Shown here one piece after another: positions 2,816 to 28,858 of a DNA stretch of 44,632 nt; positions within the stretch are counted from its first letter, which is position 1; the number at the start of each line of letters is the position of its first letter. The position numbers were made by a program, and so were the translations under genes. Source of the stretch: a virus; UHGV virus genome UHGV-0179607. One strand, 5' to 3'. The notes beneath the pieces were generated by a model that saw only the letters and a program-made list of their open reading frames with translations, was not told where the DNA came from and did not search any database.

Positions 2816-3415
2816 ATGTCACAAGGTACAATCACACTAACGAAAGGAAGTAAGACCGTTACAGGCGTGGGGACGGCGTTCCTTAGCGAGATCGGGAAGG
2901 TACTCGTATTCGCCCGCATCGACGGCAACGACTACACCGGCAAAATTGCGGCATTCAACTCGAACACGGTCATTACTCTGAAAGATAACTGGGCTGGGCC
3001 AACGAAATCCGGTGCGGCATATGAGCTAATCGAAGCACACGACCCGCGATCAAACGAATGGCCCTATTACTGGCACATGCAATTGCAGGGCGGTGGCGAC
3101 GTGCAGTTAGCTTTCCGGTCCGAGGAATTGCAATTCGGTAATGGCTACGGGCAGAACATCGCGGACGGCCCGAACGCCGAAACTAAACAGTTCCCCGTGC
3201 AATTCATAGGGCTGACTACTGACAAGTGGTGCAACCCTAAACTGGTTTACAACTTCCTTCGCGGGCACTTCGTCAAGCCGTTTGTCGTCACCGCGCCGGA
3301 TGGCGAAACAGGTTTATTCGTGGTCGATCGTTCGAGCTTGTCGTACACGGACAACGGACACCTCACGGCAACCGTATCCGCCACCCTTAAGACTGCTATT
3401 GGATTCGTAAGATGA
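2816..3415 (+). CDS. minor tail protein in the gpM position (hypothetical)
   Basis: ORF directly after the tape measure gene; start moved to ATG 2816 with GGGGGC Shine-Dalgarno. N-terminus (GTITLTKGSKTVTGVGTAF...WAGPT) resembles the N-terminus of the tail fibre at 10291. Confidence 0.5.
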   Translation: MSQGTITLTKGSKTVTGVGTAFLSEIGKVLVFARIDGNDYTGKIAAFNSNTVITLKDNWAGPTKSGAAYELIEAHDPRSNEWPYYWHMQLQGGGDVQLAFRSEELQFGNGYGQNIADGPNAETKQFPVQFIGLTTDKWCNPKLVYNFLRGHFVKPFVVTAPDGETGLFVVDRSSLSYTDNGHLTATVSATLKTAIGFVR

Positions 3416-4200
3416 ATAAACTTTATCGCGAGGCGACGCGCTTTGACCCATCGGGTCGCGTTCGCCTGATTCACATTGACGCGCAGGACGTGGAACCAGG
3501 CGACGGTGCGATCGGCGCGGGCCATCACTATTTCCACTACTGCTTTATTCCGCACACTGCCGAGGATATTGCTGCCGCCGGTGGTGACGAGGATAAGCTA
3601 AAGCCTAAATCAATCTTCTTCGGCGGGCAGGAGTTCGAATTTTGGCCCTTCGATTTATCCGGCCTTAACTTCTCCACATCGACGGCGGCAGAACCGCAAC
3701 TAACAATCGTCGATATTGGCGGCATAATCACCCGGCTGTCGCTGAATCACGACCAGCTACTTGGCGCGAAGGTTGAGATCATTGATACGTTCGCGAAGTT
3801 CCTGGACAACGGGACAGATCCAGACCCGACGCAGAAACGAGTTCAGGAGTATTACATCGACTCGCAGGTCGGGCGCAATCCGGGCAAGCAAATCACCTTC
3901 GCACTATCCTCACCTGCGGATATGGAAGGGCAGGTCGTACCCCGTCGCCAAATCATGAATATGTGCGAATGGGCGCTCAACGGGAAGTACGCCAGCGGGG
4001 ACGGGTGCACCTGGAACCTTGCGAAGCCTGGTATCAAGTATTACGACGAGCGAGGTAATGAAGTCATCGCGATGAACATGGACCGATGCGGCGGCTGTTT
4101 GTCCGACTGTTATCTTCGATTCGGGCAAGGGCTTGCGGACCCTAAAGCGGCGGTGCTGGACTTCGGCGGCTTTCCGGGGTCCAGATTAATTAAGGGGTAG
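3412..4200 (+). CDS. minor tail protein, lambda gpL-like
   Basis: Position between gpM-slot and gpK-like genes; C-terminal Cys cluster (CEW...CTW...CGGCLSDC) as in Fe-S containing gpL-type proteins; start overlaps upstream stop. Confidence 0.65.
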   Translation: MNKLYREATRFDPSGRVRLIHIDAQDVEPGDGAIGAGHHYFHYCFIPHTAEDIAAAGGDEDKLKPKSIFFGGQEFEFWPFDLSGLNFSTSTAAEPQLTIVDIGGIITRLSLNHDQLLGAKVEIIDTFAKFLDNGTDPDPTQKRVQEYYIDSQVGRNPGKQITFALSSPADMEGQVVPRRQIMNMCEWALNGKYASGDGCTWNLAKPGIKYYDERGNEVIAMNMDRCGGCLSDCYLRFGQGLADPKAAVLDFGGFPGSRLIKG

Positions 4201-4202
4201 TT

Positions 4203-4943
4203 ATGTTAACGAAGAAGGTTAAAAGCGATATCGCCGCACACGTCGCGGCCTGTCTGCCGGAAGAAGCCTGTGGCCTGGTTGTCATGGTGGGTCGTAAGCA
4301 AGTGTTCGTCCCATGTCTGAACGTATTCGAAGACCCGACCGGCGTGCGCTCACGCAAAGACGCTTTTACGATTAGTGATATGGCCTGGATGGATGCCGAG
4401 GATATGGGCGACGTCGTGCGCGTAGTCCACTCGCATCCGGGCCAGCGAGAGCTTACCCCCTCACTGGGCGACGTTAACGGATGCAACGGCAGCGGCGTAG
4501 TCTGGACCATCACTAACGAATATGGCGATTTTATCGAGATCGACCCTGAAGACCCTCCGCTGGTGGGGCGTCGATTTGTTCTCGGAATTACGGATTGTTA
4601 CGGCCTCGTCATGGACTGGCACAAAAAGCAGGGCGTAAACCTGCCAGACTTCCGCGTGCCGTATAACTGGTGGGAGACAGGCGAAAATCTGTATATGGAT
4701 AATTGGTACGGTGCTGGCTTCAGGGAATGCGAGGAGAATACGCCGGGGGCAATGGTCATCATGCAGATTAGCGCGCCAGTGCCTAACCACGCCGGGATAT
4801 TCCTTCCAGGCAACCAACTCCTGCACCATATCTACGGCAGCTTGTCGAGCGTCGTACCCTTCCGGGCAGGATTTTTCCGTGACAATGTGGTTAAATGGGT
4901 CCGTCATAAAGACCTACCGGGGAATATCACAGAATGGCAATGA
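4203..4943 (+). CDS. tail assembly protein, lambda gpK-like (MPN/JAB plus NlpC/P60-like)
   Basis: HSHPG motif typical of JAB/MPN metalloprotease domains in the N-terminal half; C-terminal half with a conserved Cys/His; synteny L-K-I-J. Confidence 0.7.
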   Translation: MLTKKVKSDIAAHVAACLPEEACGLVVMVGRKQVFVPCLNVFEDPTGVRSRKDAFTISDMAWMDAEDMGDVVRVVHSHPGQRELTPSLGDVNGCNGSGVVWTITNEYGDFIEIDPEDPPLVGRRFVLGITDCYGLVMDWHKKQGVNLPDFRVPYNWWETGENLYMDNWYGAGFRECEENTPGAMVIMQISAPVPNHAGIFLPGNQLLHHIYGSLSSVVPFRAGFFRDNVVKWVRHKDLPGNITEWQ

Positions 4944-5551
4944 CAACGTTTAAATTGTACGGCGTCTTAGGGCGTCGATTCGGTAAAGTGCATAGGCTGG
5001 ACTGTTTCACACCGGGCGAAGGAATCACCGGCTTGTGTGTGAAGTTGCCGGGGTTACAAGACTTTTTAATGTCCGCCCACCTGGATAACATGATGTTCAA
5101 GGTGCGCAAAGGCGACCACACGATGACCGGCTATGATGAGCTGGGCGAGTTCCACGGCAACCGCGTAGTTACCATCGCGCCGGTTATGACGGGCGCAAAA
5201 AGAGGGTTGGGACAATTGCTGGCGGGTGTCGCGATCGTTGTGGCGTCGTTCTATACGGGCGGACTTGCTACTGCCGCTTTCGGGGCTTCGGCTGCAACCG
5301 CTGCCGCTATCGGAACGGCGACGTTTTCGTTCGGGATGTCGATGGCGCTGGGTGGCGTTATGCAATTGCTGTCGCCACAACCGAAAGGATTGCAGACAAG
5401 GCAGGACGTGGATAACAAAGCGTCGTACGCGTTCGGCGGGCCAGTGAACACGACCGCGCAAGGTACGGCGCTTGGTGTATTATGGGGCGAGCGTGAGATC
5501 GGCGGCGCTATTATTTCAGCCGGAATCGTAACCGAGGATTTGAACGAATGA
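4934..5551 (+). CDS. tail assembly protein, lambda gpI-like
   Basis: 205 aa between the K-like and J-like genes; hydrophobic Gly/Ala-rich C-terminal segment; overlapping start/stop with both neighbours. Confidence 0.6.
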   Translation: MAMTTFKLYGVLGRRFGKVHRLDCFTPGEGITGLCVKLPGLQDFLMSAHLDNMMFKVRKGDHTMTGYDELGEFHGNRVVTIAPVMTGAKRGLGQLLAGVAIVVASFYTGGLATAAFGASAATAAAIGTATFSFGMSMALGGVMQLLSPQPKGLQTRQDVDNKASYAFGGPVNTTAQGTALGVLWGEREIGGAIISAGIVTEDLNE

Positions 5552-8500
5552 CGATTATTTACGACGTCACGGGCCATAAAGGCGGCGGTGGCAAACAGCA
5601 CACCCCACAGGAGACACCCGATAGCCTGCATTCTCTGGCTAAAATCCGCATCTTGCTTGCGCTGGGAGAAGGTGAGTTCGAAGGTATTCCAGACTCTAAC
5701 GAATTACGGCGGCGCGTATATCTGGACGGAACACCGATCCAGAATGCAGACCTGTCTGAAAACTTCCCTGGGGCGCGTGTGGAGTTCCGCCCAGGAACAC
5801 AGCACCAGGATGTGATCCACGGATTTTCAGCGGTGGAAAGTGAGCAATCTGTCGGCGTAAAACTGGAAAACGGCACGCCGTGGGTGCGCCAGATTAACGA
5901 TACCAGTCTGGACGCCGTTCGCATTCGCATCGGCATTCCGGCCCTGTACACTAACGAAGATAACGGCGACCTGGTGGGCGGGCGCATCGACTATAAGATC
6001 GTTGTGTATACGGATAACGCCGATCCGCGTGAGTTCAGATTCGCCGCCGTTGGTAAAACAATGTCGCTATATGAGCGCGACCACCGCATCGAATTACCAC
6101 CGAACGTGAATACCGGCTGGCGAGTGGAGGTGCACCGCATAACGGCAGACTCCACATCGGCGAAAGTGGTTAATGATATCCGGGTGCAATCCATCACTGA
6201 GATTATCGACGCCCGCCTGCGTTACCCGCTAACCGCGCTGTTGTTTGTGGAGTTCGACGCTAAAGCGTTCCAGAACATCCCGCGCGTGTCCATTAAGTGC
6301 AAAGGTCGCAAAGTTCTAATACCGAACAACTACGACCCGATCAATCATACCTATTCCGGGGACTGGGACGGCACGTTTAAACGCGCATGGACGGATAACC
6401 CTGCGTGGCACTGGTACGATATTTGTATTACTGAGCGCTTCGGCCTCGGTCGGCGTATCAAACCGCAAATGCTAAACCGATACGCGCTCTACCAGATTGC
6501 GCAGCGCTGCGATCAGTTGGTCAGCGACGGCAACGGTGGTCGAGAAATCCGCTTTAAGAATGATATGTACATTCAGTCACAGACGGATGCCTGGACCGTG
6601 CTTAAGGATTTAGCCGCCATCTTCGCCGGAATGACCTGGTGGGGTAACCAGATGTTGAATATCGTCAGTGACCAACCGGTCGCAGCAGTGTCGCACACTA
6701 TCACCAACGCCTCGGTAATTGATGGTCGATTCGACTACGCATCTGGCAGCCAGAAAACTCGCTATTCCACATTTGCGGTCGCATACGGCAACCCGAAGAA
6801 CCACTATGAAGATGCCATCGCAACGGGGCAGCGCGTCGAACTGGTACGCCGCCATAAGATTAACCGTCTTGATATTACGGCGATCGGCTGTACGCGTGAA
6901 TCTGAAGCGCAACGCCGCGGGCACTGGGCACTAATTTCCAACCAGCTTGACCAGCAAGTTAGTTTTAAGGTTGGCATGGAGGGGCTATTCTTTATTCCGG
7001 GTAGCGTAGTCGCGATCGCAGATACAAACATTTCTGGCGGCTTCGAGACACGCGGCGGTCGCCTGTTGTCGGACCCTGGCACGCGTACAGTGCTTAACAC
7101 GGACAGCGAAATCACGTTCCGCCCAGGTGATAAATTCCTGGTACGCACCGATAGCGGTAATGTAGAGACTCGCGAGATCGCCAGCGTCAACGGCAACAAG
7201 GTTACGCTAAAAACCGCACTGGACGCCGACCCGATTCCTGATCAGCCGTTTTGCGTCGATGGCAACGATATCCAGTTGCAGAAGTTCCGCATCACCGACC
7301 TGGAATATGACGACTCTACCAGCACTTTTTCAGTGCGCGGGATCGAGTACAACGATAGCAAATATGATGCCGTTGATAATGGCGCTCGCCTTGATCCGGG
7401 CATCTTTACTCAAGTGCCCGACGGTGTAATGAAGGGGCCAGAGTCCGTAACCATCACCCCGTCGCAGATTTCATCGCAAGGCCAGCTAATCACCAACGTG
7501 GATATTGTATTCCCTCCGGTGAAGGACGCCGTGGTGTATGAAATCCAGTGGCGACGTACCAGCTTGCAGAATATGAAAATCCAGTGGGGTAACGACTGGG
7601 TGAACATCCCCCGCACGGCCTCGAACGGCGCGCACATCCCTAACGTGTTCTCCGGTAACTACCAGGCACGCGTCCGCGCAATCGGTATGGGCGAGATTTC
7701 ATCCCCGTGGGTGTCGTCTGCCATCACGCCGATAGAAGGTCGTCTCGGCGGGCTTAACGCGCCTATCATCACCAACGCGATTTCGGGCCTCCACCAAATT
7801 TTGTGGAAGTGGAACCACAACAACGCCGCGACGGATATTTCGTACACCGAGCTTGAAGTGCGCAAGACCGGTGAAACGGAGTGGAAATTTCTTACCAACG
7901 TCCCATATCCGGGGGCGGAGTATGCGCAAACGTCACTGGAGTTCGGGATCTATCAGCAGTTGCGCGCCCGTGTAGCGGATAAAATCGGCAACCTGTCGGA
8001 CTGGTCGGCCCCGTTTGAAGGGCAGGTGAGTGACAAAGTTGACGAATACATGAAGGGGCTTGATGACGAGTTCTTGACTTCCGAGGACGGTAAACGCTTC
8101 CAGGAAGCGATCGACACCATGCCGCAAGGTATCTATGAGTCTATGCTTACGGACGCCCAGCAGCTATTCAATGCCCGCGCCGAGTATAAAGGGATTTATG
8201 CGGAAATCACGGTGGCGTATAACGTGGCGGCGGACGCGCATAAAGCCGTAGCGCAACTGGAAACGTTGATCGGCACGCGCCTTGATGACGCTGAAGCATC
8301 AATCCACACGTTGCAGACTGCGCAAAGCACACATGAACAAGCGTTCGCCCAGTACCAGCAAACTGTTGCCGCTAAGTTTTCGGAACAGGAAGCAGCCATC
8401 CAGCAGGTACAAACGGCAACGGCGGACGTGGCTGGCGCGCTGGCAGAGTATAAGACCCAGGTCGCGGCGCAGTTCGGACAGCAGTCCGCAGCTATCGAGC

Positions 8501-24491: not shown

Positions 24492-24743
24492 TTATTTTGT
24501 CTCCCAGCGGTCAATTGTTTTTGCTTCGGATGCAACCGCGAAGCGAACATATTCCAGATTGGAATCCGCCCAAATATAAAAGTCGGGGTTAGTAAAGGTG
24601 GTGCGCTTAATTTGCGCGGGTGTGTTACGGCGTTTATCTATTACGGCAACGCGGGATTGAAAGCTGCCGATGCGTTCGAATAGCCAATAGTACGGGCGCT
24701 GGTCGCGGGAATCCACCGCCTCGATTAGCGTGAAGCGTGCCAT
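24492..24743 (-). CDS. hypothetical protein
   Basis: 83 aa; GAGGA SD upstream of ATG 24743. Confidence 0.4.
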   Translation of the reverse strand: MARFTLIEAVDSRDQRPYYWLFERIGSFQSRVAVIDKRRNTPAQIKRTTFTNPDFYIWADSNLEYVRFAVASEAKTIDRWETK

Positions 24744-24754
24744 TGTCTCGTCCT

Positions 24755-24791: not shown

Positions 24792-25310
24792 TTAATCTTC
24801 CAGTTCGAAATAAGTTTCGACGATTTCTTTAAGATCTTTGTGGAAGTCTTCGACGTCGTCATCTTCCAGCTTGGCGATTGATTTGATCTCGAACGATTCC
24901 AGCAGGTCGTCGAATTCGTCGTTGGCATCGTCGTCGTCACCACCAGCGATAATAGCGGCATACTGTTTGATCTCGTCGCGCATCTCTGCCAGCGGATCGG
25001 CATCTTTCTTGCCTTTGCCTTTCGCCGGTGCTTTTTTACCCTTCGCCGGTTTTTCGTCTTCGGCTTCTTCATCGTCGTCATCTTCTACGACTTCTTTTTT
25101 GGCCTTACCTTTAGCCGGTGCTTTTTTGGTTTTCGCCGGTTTTTCGTCTTCGGTTTCATCGTCGTCATCTTCTACGACTTCTTTTTTGGCCTTAGACGGC
25201 TTCTTGTCTCCCGGCTTACCAACGGCAGCGCCAACGGTTTCATAATGCTTAGCGATGGTTTCCAGTGCTACTACGCCGCGAGTAATCAGGTTTACGATTT
25301 GTTCAAACAT
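24792..25310 (-). CDS. acidic repeat protein, first gene of the leftward early operon
   Basis: 172 aa; two tandem ~20-aa repeats KKEVVEDDDDE..EDEKPAK.KKAPAKGK and a strongly acidic C-terminus; encoded by ~60-bp DNA tandem repeats at about 25030-25200; GGAG SD. Confidence 0.5.
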   Translation of the reverse strand: MFEQIVNLITRGVVALETIAKHYETVGAAVGKPGDKKPSKAKKEVVEDDDDETEDEKPAKTKKAPAKGKAKKEVVEDDDDEEAEDEKPAKGKKAPAKGKGKKDADPLAEMRDEIKQYAAIIAGGDDDDANDEFDDLLESFEIKSIAKLEDDDVEDFHKDLKEIVETYFELED

Positions 25311-25509
25311 GTTTTATATCTCCGATTGGTTAAGTTTAGGTGTCGACAATTAACTTCGTCGGTGGCCTTAACATATTGCCTGGTTACGCGTTCTCCCGTT
25401 CGGGTAGTGGACCAGGTTATATAATCACGGTTGGGAATCCTGACACTTCGATCCGGCCCCTGCGTTGCCCCTCTCCAGTTTGCGTCCTGCATCCTGTCGA
25501 CGGAGGGAA

Positions 25510-25538
25510 TATTAGATTGGTTGCAGAAGGGAGTCAAC
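25510..25538 (-). promoter_or_regulatory. leftward early promoter (sigma70-like)
   Basis: Minus strand TTGACT - 17 bp - TAATAT; the spacer carries GCAACCAA; about 190 nt upstream of the first early gene. Confidence 0.45.
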
Positions 25539-25548
25539 AACTAATTTC

Positions 25549-25587
25549 AAAAAAAAAAAAAGCGCCGAGGCAAAATGCAACGGCGCT
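25549..25587 (-). terminator. minus-strand rho-independent terminator with 13-nt U-tract
   Basis: Stem GCGCCG / CGGCGC with 13-nt loop, followed on the minus strand by 13 T; upstream of the leftward promoter, so possibly the 3' end of a short leftward transcript. Confidence 0.4.
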
Positions 25588-25617
25588 AACCAATAAGAGA
25601 CAATGAGACGGGAATTA

Positions 25618-25645
25618 TTATTACACGCGTGCGCGCCCGTTTCAA
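25618..25645 (-). promoter_or_regulatory. candidate minus-strand promoter for a short transcript ending at the 25549-25587 terminator
   Basis: Minus strand TTGAAA - 16 bp - TAATAA; would give a ~60-nt RNA. Confidence 0.25.
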
Positions 25646-25656
25646 TATCCAAAGGA

Positions 25657-25685
25657 TTTGACACCGTGCAGTTTTGGGTGTAGTT
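25657..25685 (+). promoter_or_regulatory. rightward early promoter (sigma70-like)
   Basis: Consensus -35 TTGACA, 17-bp spacer, -10 TAGTTT, about 35 nt upstream of the HTH gene. Confidence 0.5.
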
Positions 25686-25717
25686 TCGTTGGTCATTAAC
25701 CAACTGAGGGCAGAGCA

Positions 25718-26047
25718 ATGAATGTAAACGACGCAATCGAAATGTTAACGAAGACTGTTAGCAGTGAAACAAGCCGGTCATGGGCTTATACCGATGCCGT
25801 TGGGGCGGTGCTGTTTGAGGTCGAGCGCCTGCGCAGTGTAGAAAAAGAATTACGCGCCAGGCTGGAATTGCTCAACGGTACGGCGGCGAGCAAGCTGCAA
25901 AAACACAATGAGGAAATGGAAGAATACAAAAAGCAGGTTATCCGTTTGCGCGCCGAGGGAAAGTCATGGGCGATGATCGCGGAGTTGACAGGGATTAACC
26001 AGAGCACCGTGCGCTCCTGGGTACGCAATAACAAAACTTCGAAGTAA
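25718..26047 (+). CDS. helix-turn-helix DNA-binding protein
   Basis: 109 aa; C-terminal KSWAMIAELTGINQSTVRSWV is a typical HTH; first gene of the rightward operon. Confidence 0.5.
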   Translation: MNVNDAIEMLTKTVSSETSRSWAYTDAVGAVLFEVERLRSVEKELRARLELLNGTAASKLQKHNEEMEEYKKQVIRLRAEGKSWAMIAELTGINQSTVRSWVRNNKTSK

Positions 26048-26057
26048 GGCCACGGCA

Positions 26058-28322
26058 ATGAGCTTAATTAAATTCGCTGTTACAAGACCCGCTAAAAAAG
26101 GCGAAAAAGCCAGGGCGGAAAACTTCCAGATGACCACCGATGAATTTTTCGAATTTATCAAAGATGCGAAAGAAATCTCCTCGGTGCATATCAACAAGAC
26201 GGAAGATAAAGCCGAGTATGCGCGCCGCAAGCGTAAGGCCGACGGCATCGTGGCGTATACCAGTGACGGATTGCGTCGTAAGACCAGTGCGGTGGACCGC
26301 TCGATCCTGTTCTTCGATATTGACCGTACCGACACCCGCACCCTACGCCGCTGCCGTAAGGCGTTCATTGACGCGGGGCTGGAACACGTATTTCACACCA
26401 CAACCGGCGACCGTCACCCACTGAAAGGCGGCACGCGTTGCGCTCGATTCCTGGTGCTCACTGACAAGCCTGTACCGGCTGAAGACCTGGGCCGCGTCCA
26501 GTATGCACTATTACACCAACTGGGTCTGTCAGATGTGGACTTCGACGATTGCACGAAAGACACAAACCGCCTGATGTACCTGCCACACCAGCAGTCTGTT
26601 ATTAAGTGCCACTACGGCAAGCGCGCCCGCGTCCGTCGTCTGCTTCGCCTGGCGGATAAGTTGGGCGCGGAAAAAGAGGAAGTACGCCGCGAGCTTACCC
26701 AGGGCGACGACGCAGTGGCAGACGGCATTCTGGACTGGTGCTTCCAGGCAGGATTCGAGGAGTTATCTTCCGGGCGGGGCTATGAAGTGCCGTGCCCTAA
26801 CGAACATCTACACAGCGGCGAAGGGTCCACCGCTATTATGGTTAAGGACGGCGAGATCCGTTTCAAGTGCATGCACACAGGCAACGAGTGTTGCTCGGAA
26901 CTGAATAGACACCAGCACCTGGCGCTGCGTCTTATCGGGATCCCGGACCACCTGAACGTCGAGCCACACAATATGTCCCGTAAGCAAATCGCCGCCATCC
27001 TTCCGGGGCTGGACGACGAGGAAGTCGAATCCTTATATGAACATATTGTTGATGCGGTTGGCGACGGCGAAGAATACGGCGTGTGCACCGATGCGGATCT
27101 GGATAACGAGCCGGTTGCGCTGTTCAGTAAGCACGACCCGATTATCGAGGGGTTGATTAACTTTAAATCGACCTGGTACATGGCGGGTGAGTCGAATATA
27201 GGTAAGTCTTTCTACGTGCTGGGCCAGATGGGCGCGGTTGCTGCCGGTATTCCGTTTGGCGGTGCGAAGGTCGTCCAGTCTCATTGCTTCTATTTCGACG
27301 CGGAAGGTGGCGAAGCCTCTAACCAGCGTAAAGAAGCATTGCAGATTAAATATGAGCACGACCTGGACAAGCTGCACATTATCGATCTGCAGTCACGCGG
27401 CTGGGATATCACCAGCAAATCGGGCTTGCGCGAAGTTATCAGCTTTATCAACCGCACCGCTAACGGCGAACCGGTTGGCCTGGTGGCGTTCGACTCACTC
27501 AACCAGACTGTTGCGTTGCGGTCCGCTGATGCTAAACCGTTCGACGAGAACAACGCCAGCGATATGGGTGAAGTGGTCAAAGCGCTGAAGGCCATCGCGG
27601 AAAATACAGGTGGTAGTGCGGGCGTCATCCACCACCCGGCTAAAGGTGCAAACGGCAGCAGAACGCCACGCGGGTCCGGCGCGCTGCATGGTGCTGTCGA
27701 TTCTGCGTTCTTCCTGGAACAGCCGGACGACAACCAGCCCGGACAATTGAACCTGTATCACGAAAAGTCACGTAACGGCATCAAGCAAGCGCCGCGCGGC
27801 TTCGTCCTGCTCAAGTGCAAGGTGAAGGTGGATCTCCGCAAGTCAGAAGCGTTCGAGGCGCACCAGTCCACCAGCACCGGGCCAGACTTCGGCGACGTGG
27901 TTGCCGGATGGGACGTCAAGCCGATTGCCTCCACGCCACGCGACGAGACTCTCTACCTCGTACCGGTTGCCCTGGCACCTTTCGCTATTGAACAGGCGAA
28001 GGCGGCGGGCAAGGCCGCGGTTAAGGAAGAGAACACCGCCGGACCGCGCAACGAAAAAGAGAAAGTGCTTTATGCGGCACTGGAAAAACTGATGGAAGAT
28101 AACCCGGACCATACTGGATTCAGTAAATCGGCAATCGTCCGCCAGGCGGGACTCGCAAAAGGGGGCACTTCGACGAAGGCAATCGACGATATGGTGGAGC
28201 GCGGGGTAATAGGTTTTTATACAGATCCGCACACCGGGGCCATCTATGGGTCTTCTAATTTGGTCATCAAATCGGATATCCCTATCACGCTTTCCGCGAC
28301 CGATGACGATTTAAAAGATTAA
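26058..28322 (+). CDS. primase-polymerase (AEP-like) / P-loop replicative helicase fusion protein
   Basis: N-terminal ILFFDIDRTD resembles the AEP/prim-pol DxD motif; central Cys/His cluster (CPNEHLHSG...CMHTGNECC); P-loop MAGESNIGKSF of RecA/DnaB-like (AAA_25-type) helicases; 754 aa. Confidence 0.55.
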   Translation: MSLIKFAVTRPAKKGEKARAENFQMTTDEFFEFIKDAKEISSVHINKTEDKAEYARRKRKADGIVAYTSDGLRRKTSAVDRSILFFDIDRTDTRTLRRCRKAFIDAGLEHVFHTTTGDRHPLKGGTRCARFLVLTDKPVPAEDLGRVQYALLHQLGLSDVDFDDCTKDTNRLMYLPHQQSVIKCHYGKRARVRRLLRLADKLGAEKEEVRRELTQGDDAVADGILDWCFQAGFEELSSGRGYEVPCPNEHLHSGEGSTAIMVKDGEIRFKCMHTGNECCSELNRHQHLALRLIGIPDHLNVEPHNMSRKQIAAILPGLDDEEVESLYEHIVDAVGDGEEYGVCTDADLDNEPVALFSKHDPIIEGLINFKSTWYMAGESNIGKSFYVLGQMGAVAAGIPFGGAKVVQSHCFYFDAEGGEASNQRKEALQIKYEHDLDKLHIIDLQSRGWDITSKSGLREVISFINRTANGEPVGLVAFDSLNQTVALRSADAKPFDENNASDMGEVVKALKAIAENTGGSAGVIHHPAKGANGSRTPRGSGALHGAVDSAFFLEQPDDNQPGQLNLYHEKSRNGIKQAPRGFVLLKCKVKVDLRKSEAFEAHQSTSTGPDFGDVVAGWDVKPIASTPRDETLYLVPVALAPFAIEQAKAAGKAAVKEENTAGPRNEKEKVLYAALEKLMEDNPDHTGFSKSAIVRQAGLAKGGTSTKAIDDMVERGVIGFYTDPHTGAIYGSSNLVIKSDIPITLSATDDDLKD

Positions 28323-28397
28323 ATTCTGCGCGCATTGGTTGCCGATATGGGAATTCCCATATCGGTAGATGATTAAATTCTGCGCGCATTGGTTGCC
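28317..28397. repeat. 27-bp perfect direct repeat flanking a 24-bp perfect palindrome
   Basis: GATTAAATTCTGCGCGCATTGGTTGCC at 28317-28343 and 28371-28397; between them CCGATATGGGAATTCCCATATCGG (28342-28365); copy 1 contains the primase stop codon. Confidence 0.7.
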
Positions 28398-28482
28398 ATT
28401 TTGCGTGCTTTTAGTCGGTCGTATTGGTTGCCGTGTAGTGTAAATATAGTGAATAGTTATGCAATAAAACTGCATAAAGTAA

Positions 28483-28639
28483 GCGGGACAAAAAGCGGGA
28501 CAGACCAGGGGCGGGACAAAGCGGGACAGCACCCCTGTCCCGCCCCGGATGACGCGGCCTGGCGAGGAGCGGGACAGCGGGACAGCACCCCAGTCTTTCA
28601 GACTAGACGGGGGGTCTGGCACCCCCCTCGTCTGAGACT
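28483..28639. repeat. iteron array (GCGGGACA x6-7, one inverted) plus ~48-bp conserved-stem hairpin; copy 1 of a duplicated element
   Basis: GCGGGACA at 28483, 28495, 28511, 28521, 28569, 28578 and inverted at 28536; large imperfect inverted repeat 28591-28640; same architecture at the window ends. Confidence 0.7.
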
Positions 28640-28799
28640 GCATAAAATCCAGGATTGCATAATACACGGCAACAAGATGCGAATTGCGGTCGTCGATGAA
28701 CTAGGCAACCAATGCGAGTTGCAGAATGGTGGGTGAAAAATGCAGTTTGCAGTTGCAGCAGATAGCGATCAACTTTTTCATACGCGTGATTAATATTGG

Positions 28800-28828
28800 T
28801 TGCACCCACTCCAGCACCCTGCTATATT
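28800..28828 (+). promoter_or_regulatory. sigma70-like promoter with conserved leader
   Basis: TTGCAC - 17 bp - TATATT followed by GGTTGCACACCAACA; the 22-mer 28822-28843 recurs inverted at 38936-38957. Confidence 0.4.
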
Positions 28829-28858
28829 GGTTGCACACCAACATGAGGACTGAACAAA

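Follow-up and report, generated by a model that had tools for sequence, protein, structure and literature searches.

Does the promoter-like site that faces a nearby terminator on the minus strand of a Dhillonvirus early control region specify a small RNA, and what would such an RNA act on? Dhillonviruses are among the commonest coliphage isolates; they feature in the BASEL collection and serve in studies of defence systems and in screens for phage therapy. The stretch analyzed here, UHGV-0179607 (44,632 nucleotides, referred to as the window), is a Dhillonvirus, a virulent HK578-like siphophage of E. coli. The original prediction had proposed a leftward RNA of about 60 nt from this interval. 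Together, the promoter and the terminator suggest that the early control region of this coliphage contains a small RNA gene that has escaped annotation. We consider it probable that the unit is an independent small-RNA gene, whose product most likely represses translation of neighbouring early genes in trans through a 5' seed. This reading draws on the sequence elements, their conservation, compensation in the stem, an architecture kept in diverged relatives and covarying complementarity. The unit is present in 155 GenBank phage records, and no RNA gene is annotated for it in any record listed or inspected.

The promoter, hereafter P_s, had been described as TTGAAA-16-TAATAA at 25618-25645, and the elements were found there (Table 1). 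A second reading is also possible, in which a 17-nt spacer separates the -35 from AATAAT and the -10 is extended by TGn. Both spacings fall within the 16-18 nt of sigma-70 promoters, and the promoter scan scored the site 10/12 with the TG present. In the HK578 record, a promoter is annotated at the equivalent site, and the corresponding -10 of sister-clade contigs reads TATAAT, TATTAT or TAAGAT. The RNA start was put at 25610/25609 because of the -10 position and a conservation boundary, and the 3' end would lie within the U tract. An RNA-seq data set of Dhillonvirus infection exists (ENA PRJEB75248; PMC11301168). The spacer of P_s is an alternating purine-pyrimidine tract. Four of the five promoter types in the sister clade likewise have one, about 12 to 19 nt long; in the remaining type (L069) it measures only about 8 nt.

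The terminator, predicted at 25549-25587 with a GCGCCG stem and 13 U residues, was located at exactly this place. Its 7-bp and 3-bp helices are followed without a gap by the U tract, which gives the GC-rich stem and the run of at least six U expected of intrinsic terminators. The 62-nt RNA folded with a minimum free energy (MFE) of -16.4 kcal/mol (z = -3.95), and none of 200 shuffled sequences folded as well. This terminator is the strongest in the genome; a simple terminator scan missed the hairpin solely owing to an outer loop longer than 8 nt. Both strands of the whole window hold one T-run of at least 8 nt and two promoter-like sites of at least 10/12, and one of these two sites lies 55 nt upstream of the T-run on the same strand. 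Because such elements are so rare in 44.6 kb, their pairing is beyond chance. The whole window gave no match to Rfam 15 at the gathering score, and permissive settings added only matches below the cut-offs (14-24 bits, where 43-72 are required), which overlap the terminator region.

Table 1. Coordinates of the putative small-RNA unit, its neighbouring control elements and its candidate targets in the window.
Feature	Coordinates	Strand	Remarks
Predicted small RNA	25549..25610	-	about 57-62 nt
P_s -35, TTGAAA	25640..25645	-	promoter scan; invariant in 21 of 22 aligned Dhillonvirus sequences
P_s spacer tract GCGCGCACGCGTGT	25623..25636	-	14 nt, alternating purine-pyrimidine; read from sequence
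P_s extended -10 TGTAATAAT	25617..25625	-	AATAAT 25622-25617 or TAATAA 25623-25618; invariant in aligned Dhillonvirus
Unpaired 5' seed GUCUCAUUGUCUCUUAUUGGUU	25588..25609	-	CUCAUUG 25607-25601; two GUCUC repeats; AUUGGUUA 25594-25587
Terminator hairpin	25561..25587	-	outer helix AGCGCCG/CGGCGCU (25587-25581 with 25567-25561); inner helix GCA/UGC
T13 (U tract)	25549..25561	-	length 8-15 in relatives
Rightward early promoter TTGACA-17-TAGTTT	25657..25685	+	-35 25657-25662; -10 25680-25685; back to back with P_s
Palindrome GTTGGT-N5-ACCAAC	25688-25704		after the rightward promoter
Leftward early promoter TTGACT-17-TAATAT	25509..25537	-	starts 11 nt past the T-run; operator-like GCAACCAAT (25524-25516) in spacer
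Candidate target 1, first rightward gene (HTH, ATG 25718), leader/Shine-Dalgarno/start	25697..25721	+	UAACCAA, AGAG and CAAUGA pair with the RNA
Candidate target 2, primase-helicase start GGCAAUGAG (ATG 26058)	26054..26062	+	9 bp including one G.U; z = -1.7 in window
Candidate target 3, Shine-Dalgarno region of first leftward gene (172-aa acidic protein, ATG 25310)	25317..25332	-	UAACCAAU-C-GGAGAUA
Candidate target 4, start of second leftward gene (83 aa, ATG 24743)	24741..24749	-	GAGACAAUG; 9-nt perfect complement

Two early promoters flank the unit, both where they had been placed. The rightward promoter reads TTGACA-17-TATATT in relatives. It stands back to back with P_s as claimed; however, the two do not overlap, since their -35 hexamers are 11 bp apart. 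The terminator likewise lies just upstream of the leftward early promoter. The HK578 record lists this promoter too, and its spacer in the sister clade carries two copies of GCAACCAAT.

Conservation within the genus was concentrated on the unit. Its 100 nt formed the best-conserved bins of a 900-nt profile (0.94-0.99, compared with 0.66-0.94 in coding sequence), and the top of the profile was the bin at 25593-25612 (0.986), which covers the unpaired 5' segment. In aligned Dhillonvirus sequences, variation ceases at the predicted +1. The unpaired part comprises RNA nucleotides 1-23 in both the MFE and the centroid structures. Only four RNA haplotypes occurred among about 45 window-type loci compared; across these haplotypes the stem was paired in every case, and two pairs were altered on both sides (G-C to U-A and G-C to C-G). 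The pair counts were restricted to the genus, and a MAFFT alignment of the hairpins across clades was out of structural register. The seed element AUUGGUUA is similar to ATTGGTTGC, a DNA operator half-site found repeatedly in the genome. By this likeness, some of the leader complementarity may be a by-product of shared operator sequence.

The unit was also found in a sister clade (contigs L023-L026, L040, L068 and L069), whose primase is about 68% identical to that of the window. Promoter, 5' CUCAUUG, CU-rich stretch, hairpin and T9-13 are retained there in the same position and orientation, and the stems are intact but unrelated in sequence to that of the window. At five sister-clade loci, the sole perfect complement of at least 10 nt to the unpaired part of the RNA, within 5-9 kb on both strands, was the start codon of the primase-helicase gene. 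Seed and primase start covary with compensating changes at four positions, UUGCUCAUUGUC pairing with GACAAUGAGCAA, UCUCAUUGCUU with AAGCAAUGAGA, GUUCAUUGCU with AGCAAUGAAC and UUCUCAUUGCUU with AAGCAAUGAGAA. Cognate pairs of RNA and primase start gave -22.9 kcal/mol compared with -17.4 kcal/mol for permuted pairs (p = 5e-5, a permutation value that overstates independence because the lineages share kinship). The mean longest perfect match was 9.9 nt for cognate and 6.7 nt for permuted pairs. In every clade, the complementarity begins at predicted RNA positions +1 to +3. Because the RNA does not vary within the genus whereas its proposed target sites do, the covariation is demonstrated mainly in the sister clade.

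Among remoter relatives, Enterobacter phage phiEap-2 and metagenomic relatives have analogous units complementary to their own primase start. The phiEap-2-like unit lies within the rightward operon and not beside a leftward promoter. In a group with 48% identity, mirror copies of the primase start region were sought as exact inverted repeats, which revealed no RNA unit and only a shared ribosome-binding cassette of a leftward gene; thus, the unit is not universal among relatives.

Within the window, the seed pairs best with the first rightward (HTH) gene and the two leftward genes, and the primase pairing is weak, at 9 bp. A genome-wide sliding RNAduplex scan did not discriminate, as long G.U-rich duplexes dominated, and it was replaced with translation-start ranking, perfect-match searches and cognate versus non-cognate tests. 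The HTH start region gave RNAduplex energies of -21.9 and -21.1 kcal/mol and ranked second among the 58 translation-start regions of phiEco273; energy-based scores of this kind are inflated because a CU-rich seed will bind strong Shine-Dalgarno sequences in general. In phages rolling and SP1, the HTH pairing extends over 16 contiguous bp with one G.U (z = -5). Compared with shuffled seeds, window-type phages with the standard 109-aa HTH gene had z from -2.3 to -5.2, whereas those with a different first gene had z from -0.7 to -2.0. The Shine-Dalgarno region of the first leftward gene gave -18.0 to -17.2 kcal/mol (z = -3.2), with z of about -3 in window-type phages and -1.4 in the LM40P1-type. 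The second leftward gene was the best start-aligned match (11/13) among 57 gene starts compared, and the GAGACAAUG complement is also present in L020, L070 and L039. Four of the five genes nearest the unit were within the top 11 of 58 translation-start regions. However, the translation-start region of a structural gene surpassed every early gene by RNAduplex.

For the primase start, perfect and covarying pairing of 10-12 bp was found in the sister clade and in the LM40P1-type, L079 and L071 lineages, and z ranged from -3.5 to -4.4 in the HK578-, L071- and LM40P1-type lineages. Another candidate interaction was pairing of the CU-rich stretch ahead of the hairpin with the Shine-Dalgarno region of the first leftward gene, with covariation in L023 and L024. 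It was demoted to a secondary possibility because any CU-rich RNA fits a strong Shine-Dalgarno sequence and because L040 broke the pattern.

From these elements, the following course of events can be proposed. Host sigma-70 RNA polymerase would start at P_s, a near-consensus extended -10 promoter, and halt about 60 nt further on at the strong intrinsic terminator. The product would consist of a 22-nt unstructured 5' seed, a single GC-rich hairpin and a long U tail. Its seed may pair with the translation-initiation regions of the first rightward gene and the first two leftward genes and with the primase-helicase start codon; such pairing would obstruct ribosome binding. As the RNA accumulates, expression of the early and replication genes would be dampened, by a logic akin to plasmid antisense control of copy number, yet in trans. 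Repression of the primase-helicase and early operons, if it occurs, would make the RNA a device that sets the timing or dosage of replication. More broadly, we tentatively suggest, with rather less confidence than for the small-RNA gene itself, that Dhillonvirus, the sister clade, the phiEap-2-like phages and metagenomic relatives of Salmonella Jersey-like phages might share one arrangement. A terminated RNA beside the primase-helicase gene, with a seed that mirrors and co-evolves with the start of this gene, could act in trans as a plasmid-like copy-control loop, holding back the replication initiator and, in Dhillonvirus, both divergent early operons too.

Other readings of the same elements were weighed against a trans-acting RNA. 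The promoter and terminator might act on the DNA level only and shape transcription of the control region, with the RNA as an inert by-product, through supercoiling coupling or competition with the rightward promoter, insulation from read-through, or a T tract serving as an UP or bend element. The geometry allows this, given the short distance between the two -35 hexamers, a terminator that ends 11 nt before the leftward -35, a T tract at about -47 to -59 of the leftward promoter and a conserved alternating spacer in P_s that could sense supercoiling. We nevertheless regard this as unlikely. The best-conserved stretch of the region is the unpaired segment of the predicted transcript, with conservation starting from +1, and a by-product would not be expected to follow the sister-clade primase start codon as this segment does. 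Moreover, the T-run adjoins the hairpin in every clade compared, whereas its distance to the leftward -35 varies by clade (11, 20 and 22 nt), which fits a terminator rather than a fixed UP element, and the phiEap-2-like unit does not adjoin a leftward promoter. The original prediction had itself allowed for a hairpin that merely insulates the leftward promoter and an A13/T13 tract that is a bend or UP-like element; as the sole role this is less likely, since the comparative data (conservation, double changes in the stem, the sister clade and covarying complementarity) favour the RNA gene. Insulation and some UP-like contribution of the T tract are compatible with the RNA gene as side effects. 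A genuine RNA could instead work mainly on host mRNAs or sRNA networks, by Hfq sequestration or an anti-Shine-Dalgarno-like seed, which would make the phage matches incidental. Its architecture is of the Hfq type, an RNA invariant in a genus whose phage target sites vary is what a conserved host constraint would produce, and the published phage sRNAs lambda PreS and VP882 VpdS act on host genes (PMC12197685). This we find quite improbable, as the sister-clade seeds differ from that of the window and change in step with the primase start codons of their own phages. When the unit was compared by BLAST with 5,426 complete E. coli genomes, no match and no extended complementarity appeared, so the unit is not a host or prophage copy, although short seed matches are invisible to BLAST.

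A strong promoter followed closely by a strong terminator, with same-strand genes downstream, also recalls the leader or attenuator of an operon. The RNA would then be the terminated form of a longer leftward mRNA released later by phage antitermination, as with lambda PR'-tR'/Q or N/nut, and the conserved 5' sequence could serve as a recognition site for the factor. The leftward operon, however, owns a conserved promoter with operator-like sites right after the terminator, so that the terminated leader is not the sole route to a late operon as in lambda, and its genes are of the early replication/recombination type (nuclease, DNA polymerase I, helicase). Among the five adjacent proteins, Pfam and PHROG scans recognised only an HTH domain and AAA_25 and no antiterminator family. 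An attenuator also leaves the covarying complementarity to the primase start on the opposite strand unexplained, and we judge it very unlikely. Even less probable is a replication transcript, either a primer RNA or a transcriptional activator of an origin by the primase-helicase gene, as once proposed for lambda oop. The RNA is short, strongly terminated, beside the replication module and has a long A/T tract, but the iteron-like repeats marking the likely origin are 3 kb off, after the primase-helicase gene, and neither role predicts start-codon complementarity or covariation. Finally, the plus strand carries AAGAGACA-ATG at 25605 and a 26-codon ORF, MRRELLLHACAPVSISKGFDTVQFWV. The Shine-Dalgarno-like AAGAG just before its ATG is expected anyway of the mirror image of a translation start. 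We rejected this small protein and give it next to no probability: one-base indels at 25613-25616 in very close relatives shift the frame after codon 3, the sister-clade peptide is unrelated, and the scan found no upstream plus-strand promoter.

The preferred reading, a trans-acting small RNA, has practical weight. The unit sits in the main early control region of the 155 deposited genomes and, whatever its function, merits annotation and attention when Dhillonviruses are engineered. The proposed interaction is easily tested, since it can be mutated and then compensated. To our knowledge, only a small number of regulatory RNAs from strictly lytic phages have been studied in detail. A literature search returned nothing relevant on a Dhillonvirus sRNA or transcriptome, nor on sRNA control of a phage primase, and a 2025 review of phage-derived sRNAs makes no mention of primase.

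Among known systems, the enterobacterial Hfq-dependent 5'-seed sRNAs (RybB, OmrA/OmrB and MicC) have the same layout and size (60-110 nt), with their own sigma-70 promoter, a conserved unstructured 5' seed, one Rho-independent terminator hairpin ending in a long U tail and, as predicted here, pairing of 9-16 bp at a ribosome-binding site or start codon. The Dhillonvirus RNA differs in being encoded by a virulent phage, in having no sequence or Rfam kinship with them and in its predicted targets, which are the early genes of the phage itself; Hfq binding is hypothetical in this case. Lambda OOP (77 nt, from the constitutive promoter pO, antisense to cII and beside O) is likewise a short leftward RNA with an intrinsic terminator in a siphophage early region near replication genes, and down-regulation of early genes is predicted here as well. 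However, OOP overlaps its target in cis and acts via RNase III, whereas the Dhillonvirus RNA is predicted to act in trans by a short seed. In the window, the RNA overlaps neither a gene nor a rightward transcript: plus-strand genes do not extend across 25549-25610, the rightward promoter is to the right of the unit, and the scan found no promoter-like site upstream on the plus strand. The phiEap-2-type units are nearer to the OOP layout. The plasmid antisense RNAs (R1 CopA, ColE2 RNAI and the IncB/IncI Inc RNA) are small constitutive RNAs that exert negative control at the translation start of a replication initiator, as suggested here for the primase-helicase. Unlike those fully complementary cis-antisense RNAs with kissing loops, the Dhillonvirus RNA is trans-encoded about 450 nt from the primase-helicase start, across a promoter, and offers 9-12 nt of complementarity. 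The c4 RNA of P1/P7 and the CI RNA of P4 are phage regulatory RNAs that reach nearby targets by short repeated complementary sequences without overlap, which is the manner proposed for the Dhillonvirus RNA. Those two are processed from longer transcripts and confer immunity in temperate elements, whereas the Dhillonvirus unit has its own promoter and terminator and belongs to a lytic phage.

The 1.3 kb around the predicted small-RNA gene matched 176 phage records, almost all from Escherichia phages of the genus Dhillonvirus (HK578-like siphophages), with phiEco273 as the best match (98.8% identity). This unit, composed of a minus-strand promoter (P_s), an RNA of about 60 nt and a terminator, sits within the single large divergent control region of the window genome. 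Rightward, the HTH gene is followed by a 754-aa primase-helicase (AAA_25), with the structural genes much further along; the later leftward genes encode a DUF2800/PD-(D/E)XK nuclease, DNA polymerase I and a helicase. The first leftward protein, which is highly acidic and lysine-rich, belongs to PHROG 3127 (function not known), and its homologues occupy the equivalent position in relatives of Jersey-like Salmonella phages. In the phiEco273 record (PP786691.1, our locus L072), the primase-helicase at 4370-6633 appears as two separate CDS (4370-4600 and 4600-6633) where the window has an intact ORF, which suggests either a frameshift or a split in the annotation.

The original prediction of a leftward RNA rested on a minus-strand promoter, a hairpin and a T tract, and all three were found where it had placed them. 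The fold of the predicted 62-nt RNA is exactly the terminator hairpin (-16.4 kcal/mol, z = -3.95), leaving the first 23 nt unpaired. On both strands of the 44.6-kb window, the terminator tract is the sole T-run of at least 8 nt, and one of the only two promoter-like sites scoring at least 10/12 lies 55 nt upstream of it. The HK578 GenBank record already marks both leftward promoters and the rightward promoter as consensus matches, and the CS16 record marks the terminator; no RNA gene was annotated at the unit among the matches listed (30 of 155 records) or in the records inspected. A discrete small RNA is probably made from the unit.

Coordinates of the features and predicted pairings of the sister-clade RNAs
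Feature	Position	Strand	Description
P_s promoter	TTGAAA 25645-25640; AATAAT 25622-25617	minus	17-nt spacing; TGT before -10; scan score 10/12
Terminator	25587-25549	minus	AGCGCCG/CGGCGCU helix, inner GCA/UGC helix, 13 T directly after
Leftward operon	from 25310	minus	172-aa acidic repeat protein, small proteins first
First leftward gene	24792-25310	minus	90-nt tandem duplication at 24998-25177, copies 80% identical
First rightward gene	from 25718	plus	109-aa HTH protein; HTH_23 / Sigma70_r4_2
Segment in leftward 5' UTR	25341-25501		about 155 nt; GTCGACA at both ends (25501-25495, 25347-25341)
phiEap-2-type units, L050-L053, L055, L058	~3376-3460	minus
phiEap-2-type units, L062, L063, L067	~3378-3455	minus
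Pairing, L040 / L068			RNA 5' end UUGCUCAUUGUC; primase-helicase start region GACAAUGAGCAA; 12 perfect pairs
Pairing, L026			RNA 5' end UUCUCAUUGCUU; primase-helicase start region AAGCAAUGAGAA; 12 perfect pairs
Pairing, L024			RNA 5' end UCUCAUUGCUU; primase-helicase start region AAGCAAUGAGA; 11 perfect pairs
Pairing, L023			RNA 5' end GCUCAUUGUC; primase-helicase start region GACAAUGAGC; 10 perfect pairs
Pairing, L025			RNA 5' end GUUCAUUGCU; primase-helicase start region AGCAAUGAAC; 10 perfect pairs

An alignment of 22 Dhillonvirus control regions showed almost no change in the promoter, in the hairpin or in the unpaired stretch GTCTCATTGTCTCTTA(T)TGGTTA. Variation fell in the spacers of the rightward and leftward promoters, in the rightward leader with its ribosome-binding site, and in the few bases between the P_s -10 and the predicted start. 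When 900 nt were profiled in 20-nt bins, the five over 25553-25652 scored 0.94-0.99 versus 0.66-0.94 for bins within genes, and the highest (0.986, 25593-25612) coincided with the unpaired part of the RNA. Variation, one-base indels included, ends at 25610/25609, which is the transcript start predicted from the -10.

The unit occurs in 155 GenBank phage records (145 at 95% identity or more) and in ten further metagenome contigs, and was not found in any of 5,426 complete E. coli genomes. Only four RNA haplotypes were present among the approximately 45 window-type loci then compared. In the most divergent, the LM40P1 type, the stem AGCGCCG/CGGCGCU becomes AUCCCCG/CGGGGAU through two double compensatory changes that fully keep the pairing; the stem shuffle statistic was 39/500, which is weak with four distinct rows. 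A 26-codon ORF (ATG 25605), the sole plus-strand frame through the region, is broken by one-base indels and no plus-strand promoter was found for it, which removes a small-protein explanation.

Through primase-helicase homologues about 68% identical, we reached a sister clade of contigs that share the gene order of the window. Their units keep the position and orientation, with a promoter of TTGCGC or TTGTAC, 17-18 nt, then TATAAT, TATTAT or TAAGAT. The RNA begins with (C/U)UCAUUG, followed by a variable middle and CUCCUGAA or a close variant. The terminator hairpins are unrelated in sequence to that of the window (GCCUGGCC..GGUCAGGC, AUCCCCAG..CUGGGGAU or GCCCGCAAAA..UUUUGCGGGU) and lead into a T9-13 run and then the leftward promoter. 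The T-run touches the hairpin in every case, window type and sister clade alike, whereas its distance to the leftward -35 shifts from 11 nt in the window type to 20-22 nt in the sister clade. This favors a terminator and disfavors a positioned UP element.

Several side observations concern these elements. The P_s spacer holds a 14-nt alternating purine-pyrimidine tract, GCGCGCACGCGTGT (25623-25636, minus), which is Z-DNA-prone; tracts of this kind, some 12 to 19 nt long, persist through sequence change in four of five sister-clade promoter types, the fifth (L069) having about 8 nt, which hints at a supercoiling-sensitive promoter. The T tract (25549-25561 and homologues) varies from 8 to 15 among relatives, and the ZCEC10 and SECphi18 GenBank records are linearised inside or beside it; its length may partly be a sequencing or assembly artefact, which would matter for the predicted RNA 3' end. 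The GTCGACA-bounded segment of the leftward 5' UTR is missing in several Dhillonviruses (rolling, SP1, JLBYU37, CHD5UKE2 and L070). It is nearly identical in the sister-clade contig L025, though the L025 genes are only about 68% identical. Its core (25425-25476) reaches 92% identity in Escherichia/Shigella phages of 51 kb, a size suggestive of T1-like phages (JK16, tunus, ityhuna and others), and 77-86% in Enterobacter phage Arya, Salmonella phage Lumpael and Klebsiella phages. Between the window and L025 a stem pair is swapped (CCTGG..CCAGG in the window, CCAGG..CCTGG in L025), and the folding z-score is just -0.9 on either strand. A small mobile element and a structured leader are both possible readings of the segment.

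The unpaired 5' end of the RNA mirrors a translation start, its reverse complement being GAGACA-AUG-AGAC. In five sister-clade loci, the sole perfect complement of at least 10 nt to the unpaired part, over 5-9 kb and both strands, lay on the primase-helicase start codon. Upstream of the AUG, GUC versus GCU in the RNA tracks GAC versus AGC in the mRNA; at the second codon, GCU, UCU and GUU track AGC, AGA and AAC. Every lineage shows this complementarity from predicted RNA position +1 to +3 onward. Cognate RNA/primase-start pairs from 11 lineages averaged -22.9 kcal/mol versus -17.4 for permuted pairs (p = 5e-5, a generous value as the lineages are related), and the longest perfect match averaged 9.9 versus 6.7 nt.

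The window lineage is less tidy, with an invariant RNA and variable candidate target sites. The primase start of the window, GGCAAUGAGC, forms 9 bp with the RNA including one G.U (z = -1.7); LM40P1-type GAGACAAUGAGA forms 12 bp, and GACAAUGAGA and AGACAAUGAG of the compared lineages L079 and L071 form 10 bp each. The HK578 type pairs via AAUGAGACG just upstream of the primase start and also via AGACAAUGAG at the start of an alternative first gene. The second half of the seed, UGUCUCUUAUUGGUUA, complements the HTH-gene leader and Shine-Dalgarno region, with 16 contiguous bp including one G.U in rolling and SP1 (z = -5) and two 7-bp helices around a 2-nt loop in the window, within a duplex of -21 to -22 kcal/mol. 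It also complements the Shine-Dalgarno region of the first leftward gene, UAACCAAU-C-GGAGAUA (z about -3), and CAUUGUCUC matches the second leftward gene start perfectly over 9 nt in four lineages. Among 58 annotated translation-start regions of phiEco273, a structural gene ranked 1st, the HTH gene 2nd, and leftward genes 3, 2 and 1 ranked 3rd, 8th and 11th.

Part of the leader match runs through AUUGGUUA, akin to a DNA motif (ATTGGTTGC or TTGGT-N5-ACCAA) recurrent at promoters genome-wide, and may reflect a shared operator sequence, not selection for RNA pairing. The motif ATTGGTTG(C), palindromic form TTGGT-N5-ACCAA, has 14 copies in the window versus about 1.4 expected, most apparently between ORFs (sites include 25688-25704, 25516-25524 and 28331-28836). 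It lies at the rightward promoter +1 region, in the leftward promoter spacer (two copies there in the sister clade) and over TATATT-type promoters preceding other genes. A phage regulator, possibly the 109-aa HTH protein, probably uses the motif as its operator.

We propose, with moderate confidence in the model as a whole, a small-RNA gene that represses the flanking early genes by pairing. A constitutive gene would give a product with a 5' seed, a single terminator hairpin and a U tail, presumably using Hfq, which would pair with translation-initiation regions of these genes and lower their translation. The main site in the sister clade, and probably ancestrally, would be the start codon of the replicative primase-helicase; the most likely targets in the window phage are the HTH-primase operon leader and the first leftward genes. 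Rising levels of the RNA would damp expression of the early and replication genes. A purely DNA-level role (promoter coupling, insulation or an UP element) accounts for the geometry of the unit but leaves unexplained that its best-conserved sequence is a transcribed unpaired segment, and that this segment tracks the primase start codon.

It is unlikely that the RNA is a terminated leader that awaits antitermination, because a conserved promoter of its own, directly past the terminator, serves the leftward operon, whose genes are early ones. Use of the RNA as a replication primer or origin activator does not predict the complementarity, and the likely origin, with GCGGGACA iterons at 28484-28590, is 3 kb distant. 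This candidate origin holds at least six such iteron-like repeats, with inverted repeats nearby, in a 540-nt non-coding stretch immediately past the primase-helicase gene. The RNA may act on the host, either instead of or alongside its predicted phage targets.

The unit had no Rfam match, and our literature search returned no description of its RNA and no Dhillonvirus transcriptome map; a 2025 review of phage sRNAs nowhere mentions primase. The predicted RNA is a new, unannotated family, acting in a well-known way if the model holds, and the unit offers a solid lead, cheap to test, in a phage group in wide use. Enterobacter phage phiEap-2 (L062, identical across the 161 nt searched) and metagenomic phages, with primases 43-44% identical, also have a minus-strand promoter and a terminator separated by about 70 nt, at most 115 nt upstream of the primase gene and antisense within the rightward operon. 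Within each such unit lies a copy that complements the primase start of the same phage (UUGAGCGGUU with AACCGCUCAA; UUCCAUGCU plus GUUCUC with GAGAAC..AGCAUGGAA), in a layout close to that of lambda oop; no such unit was found in another related group, at 48% identity. These units and the Dhillonvirus unit may be either homologous or convergent.

The Dhillonvirus unit shares the layout of enterobacterial 5'-seed sRNAs, for example RybB and OmrA/B. Its RNA overlaps nothing on the opposite strand in the window genome and is therefore unlike the cis-antisense RNAs lambda OOP, P22 sar and plasmid CopA. It recalls P1 c4 and P4 CI, which act via short repeated complementary sequences nearby. Plasmid systems share the proposed logic, in which a small RNA targets the translation start of a replication initiator; if the model is true, this would form an appealing tie to plasmid-style replication control.
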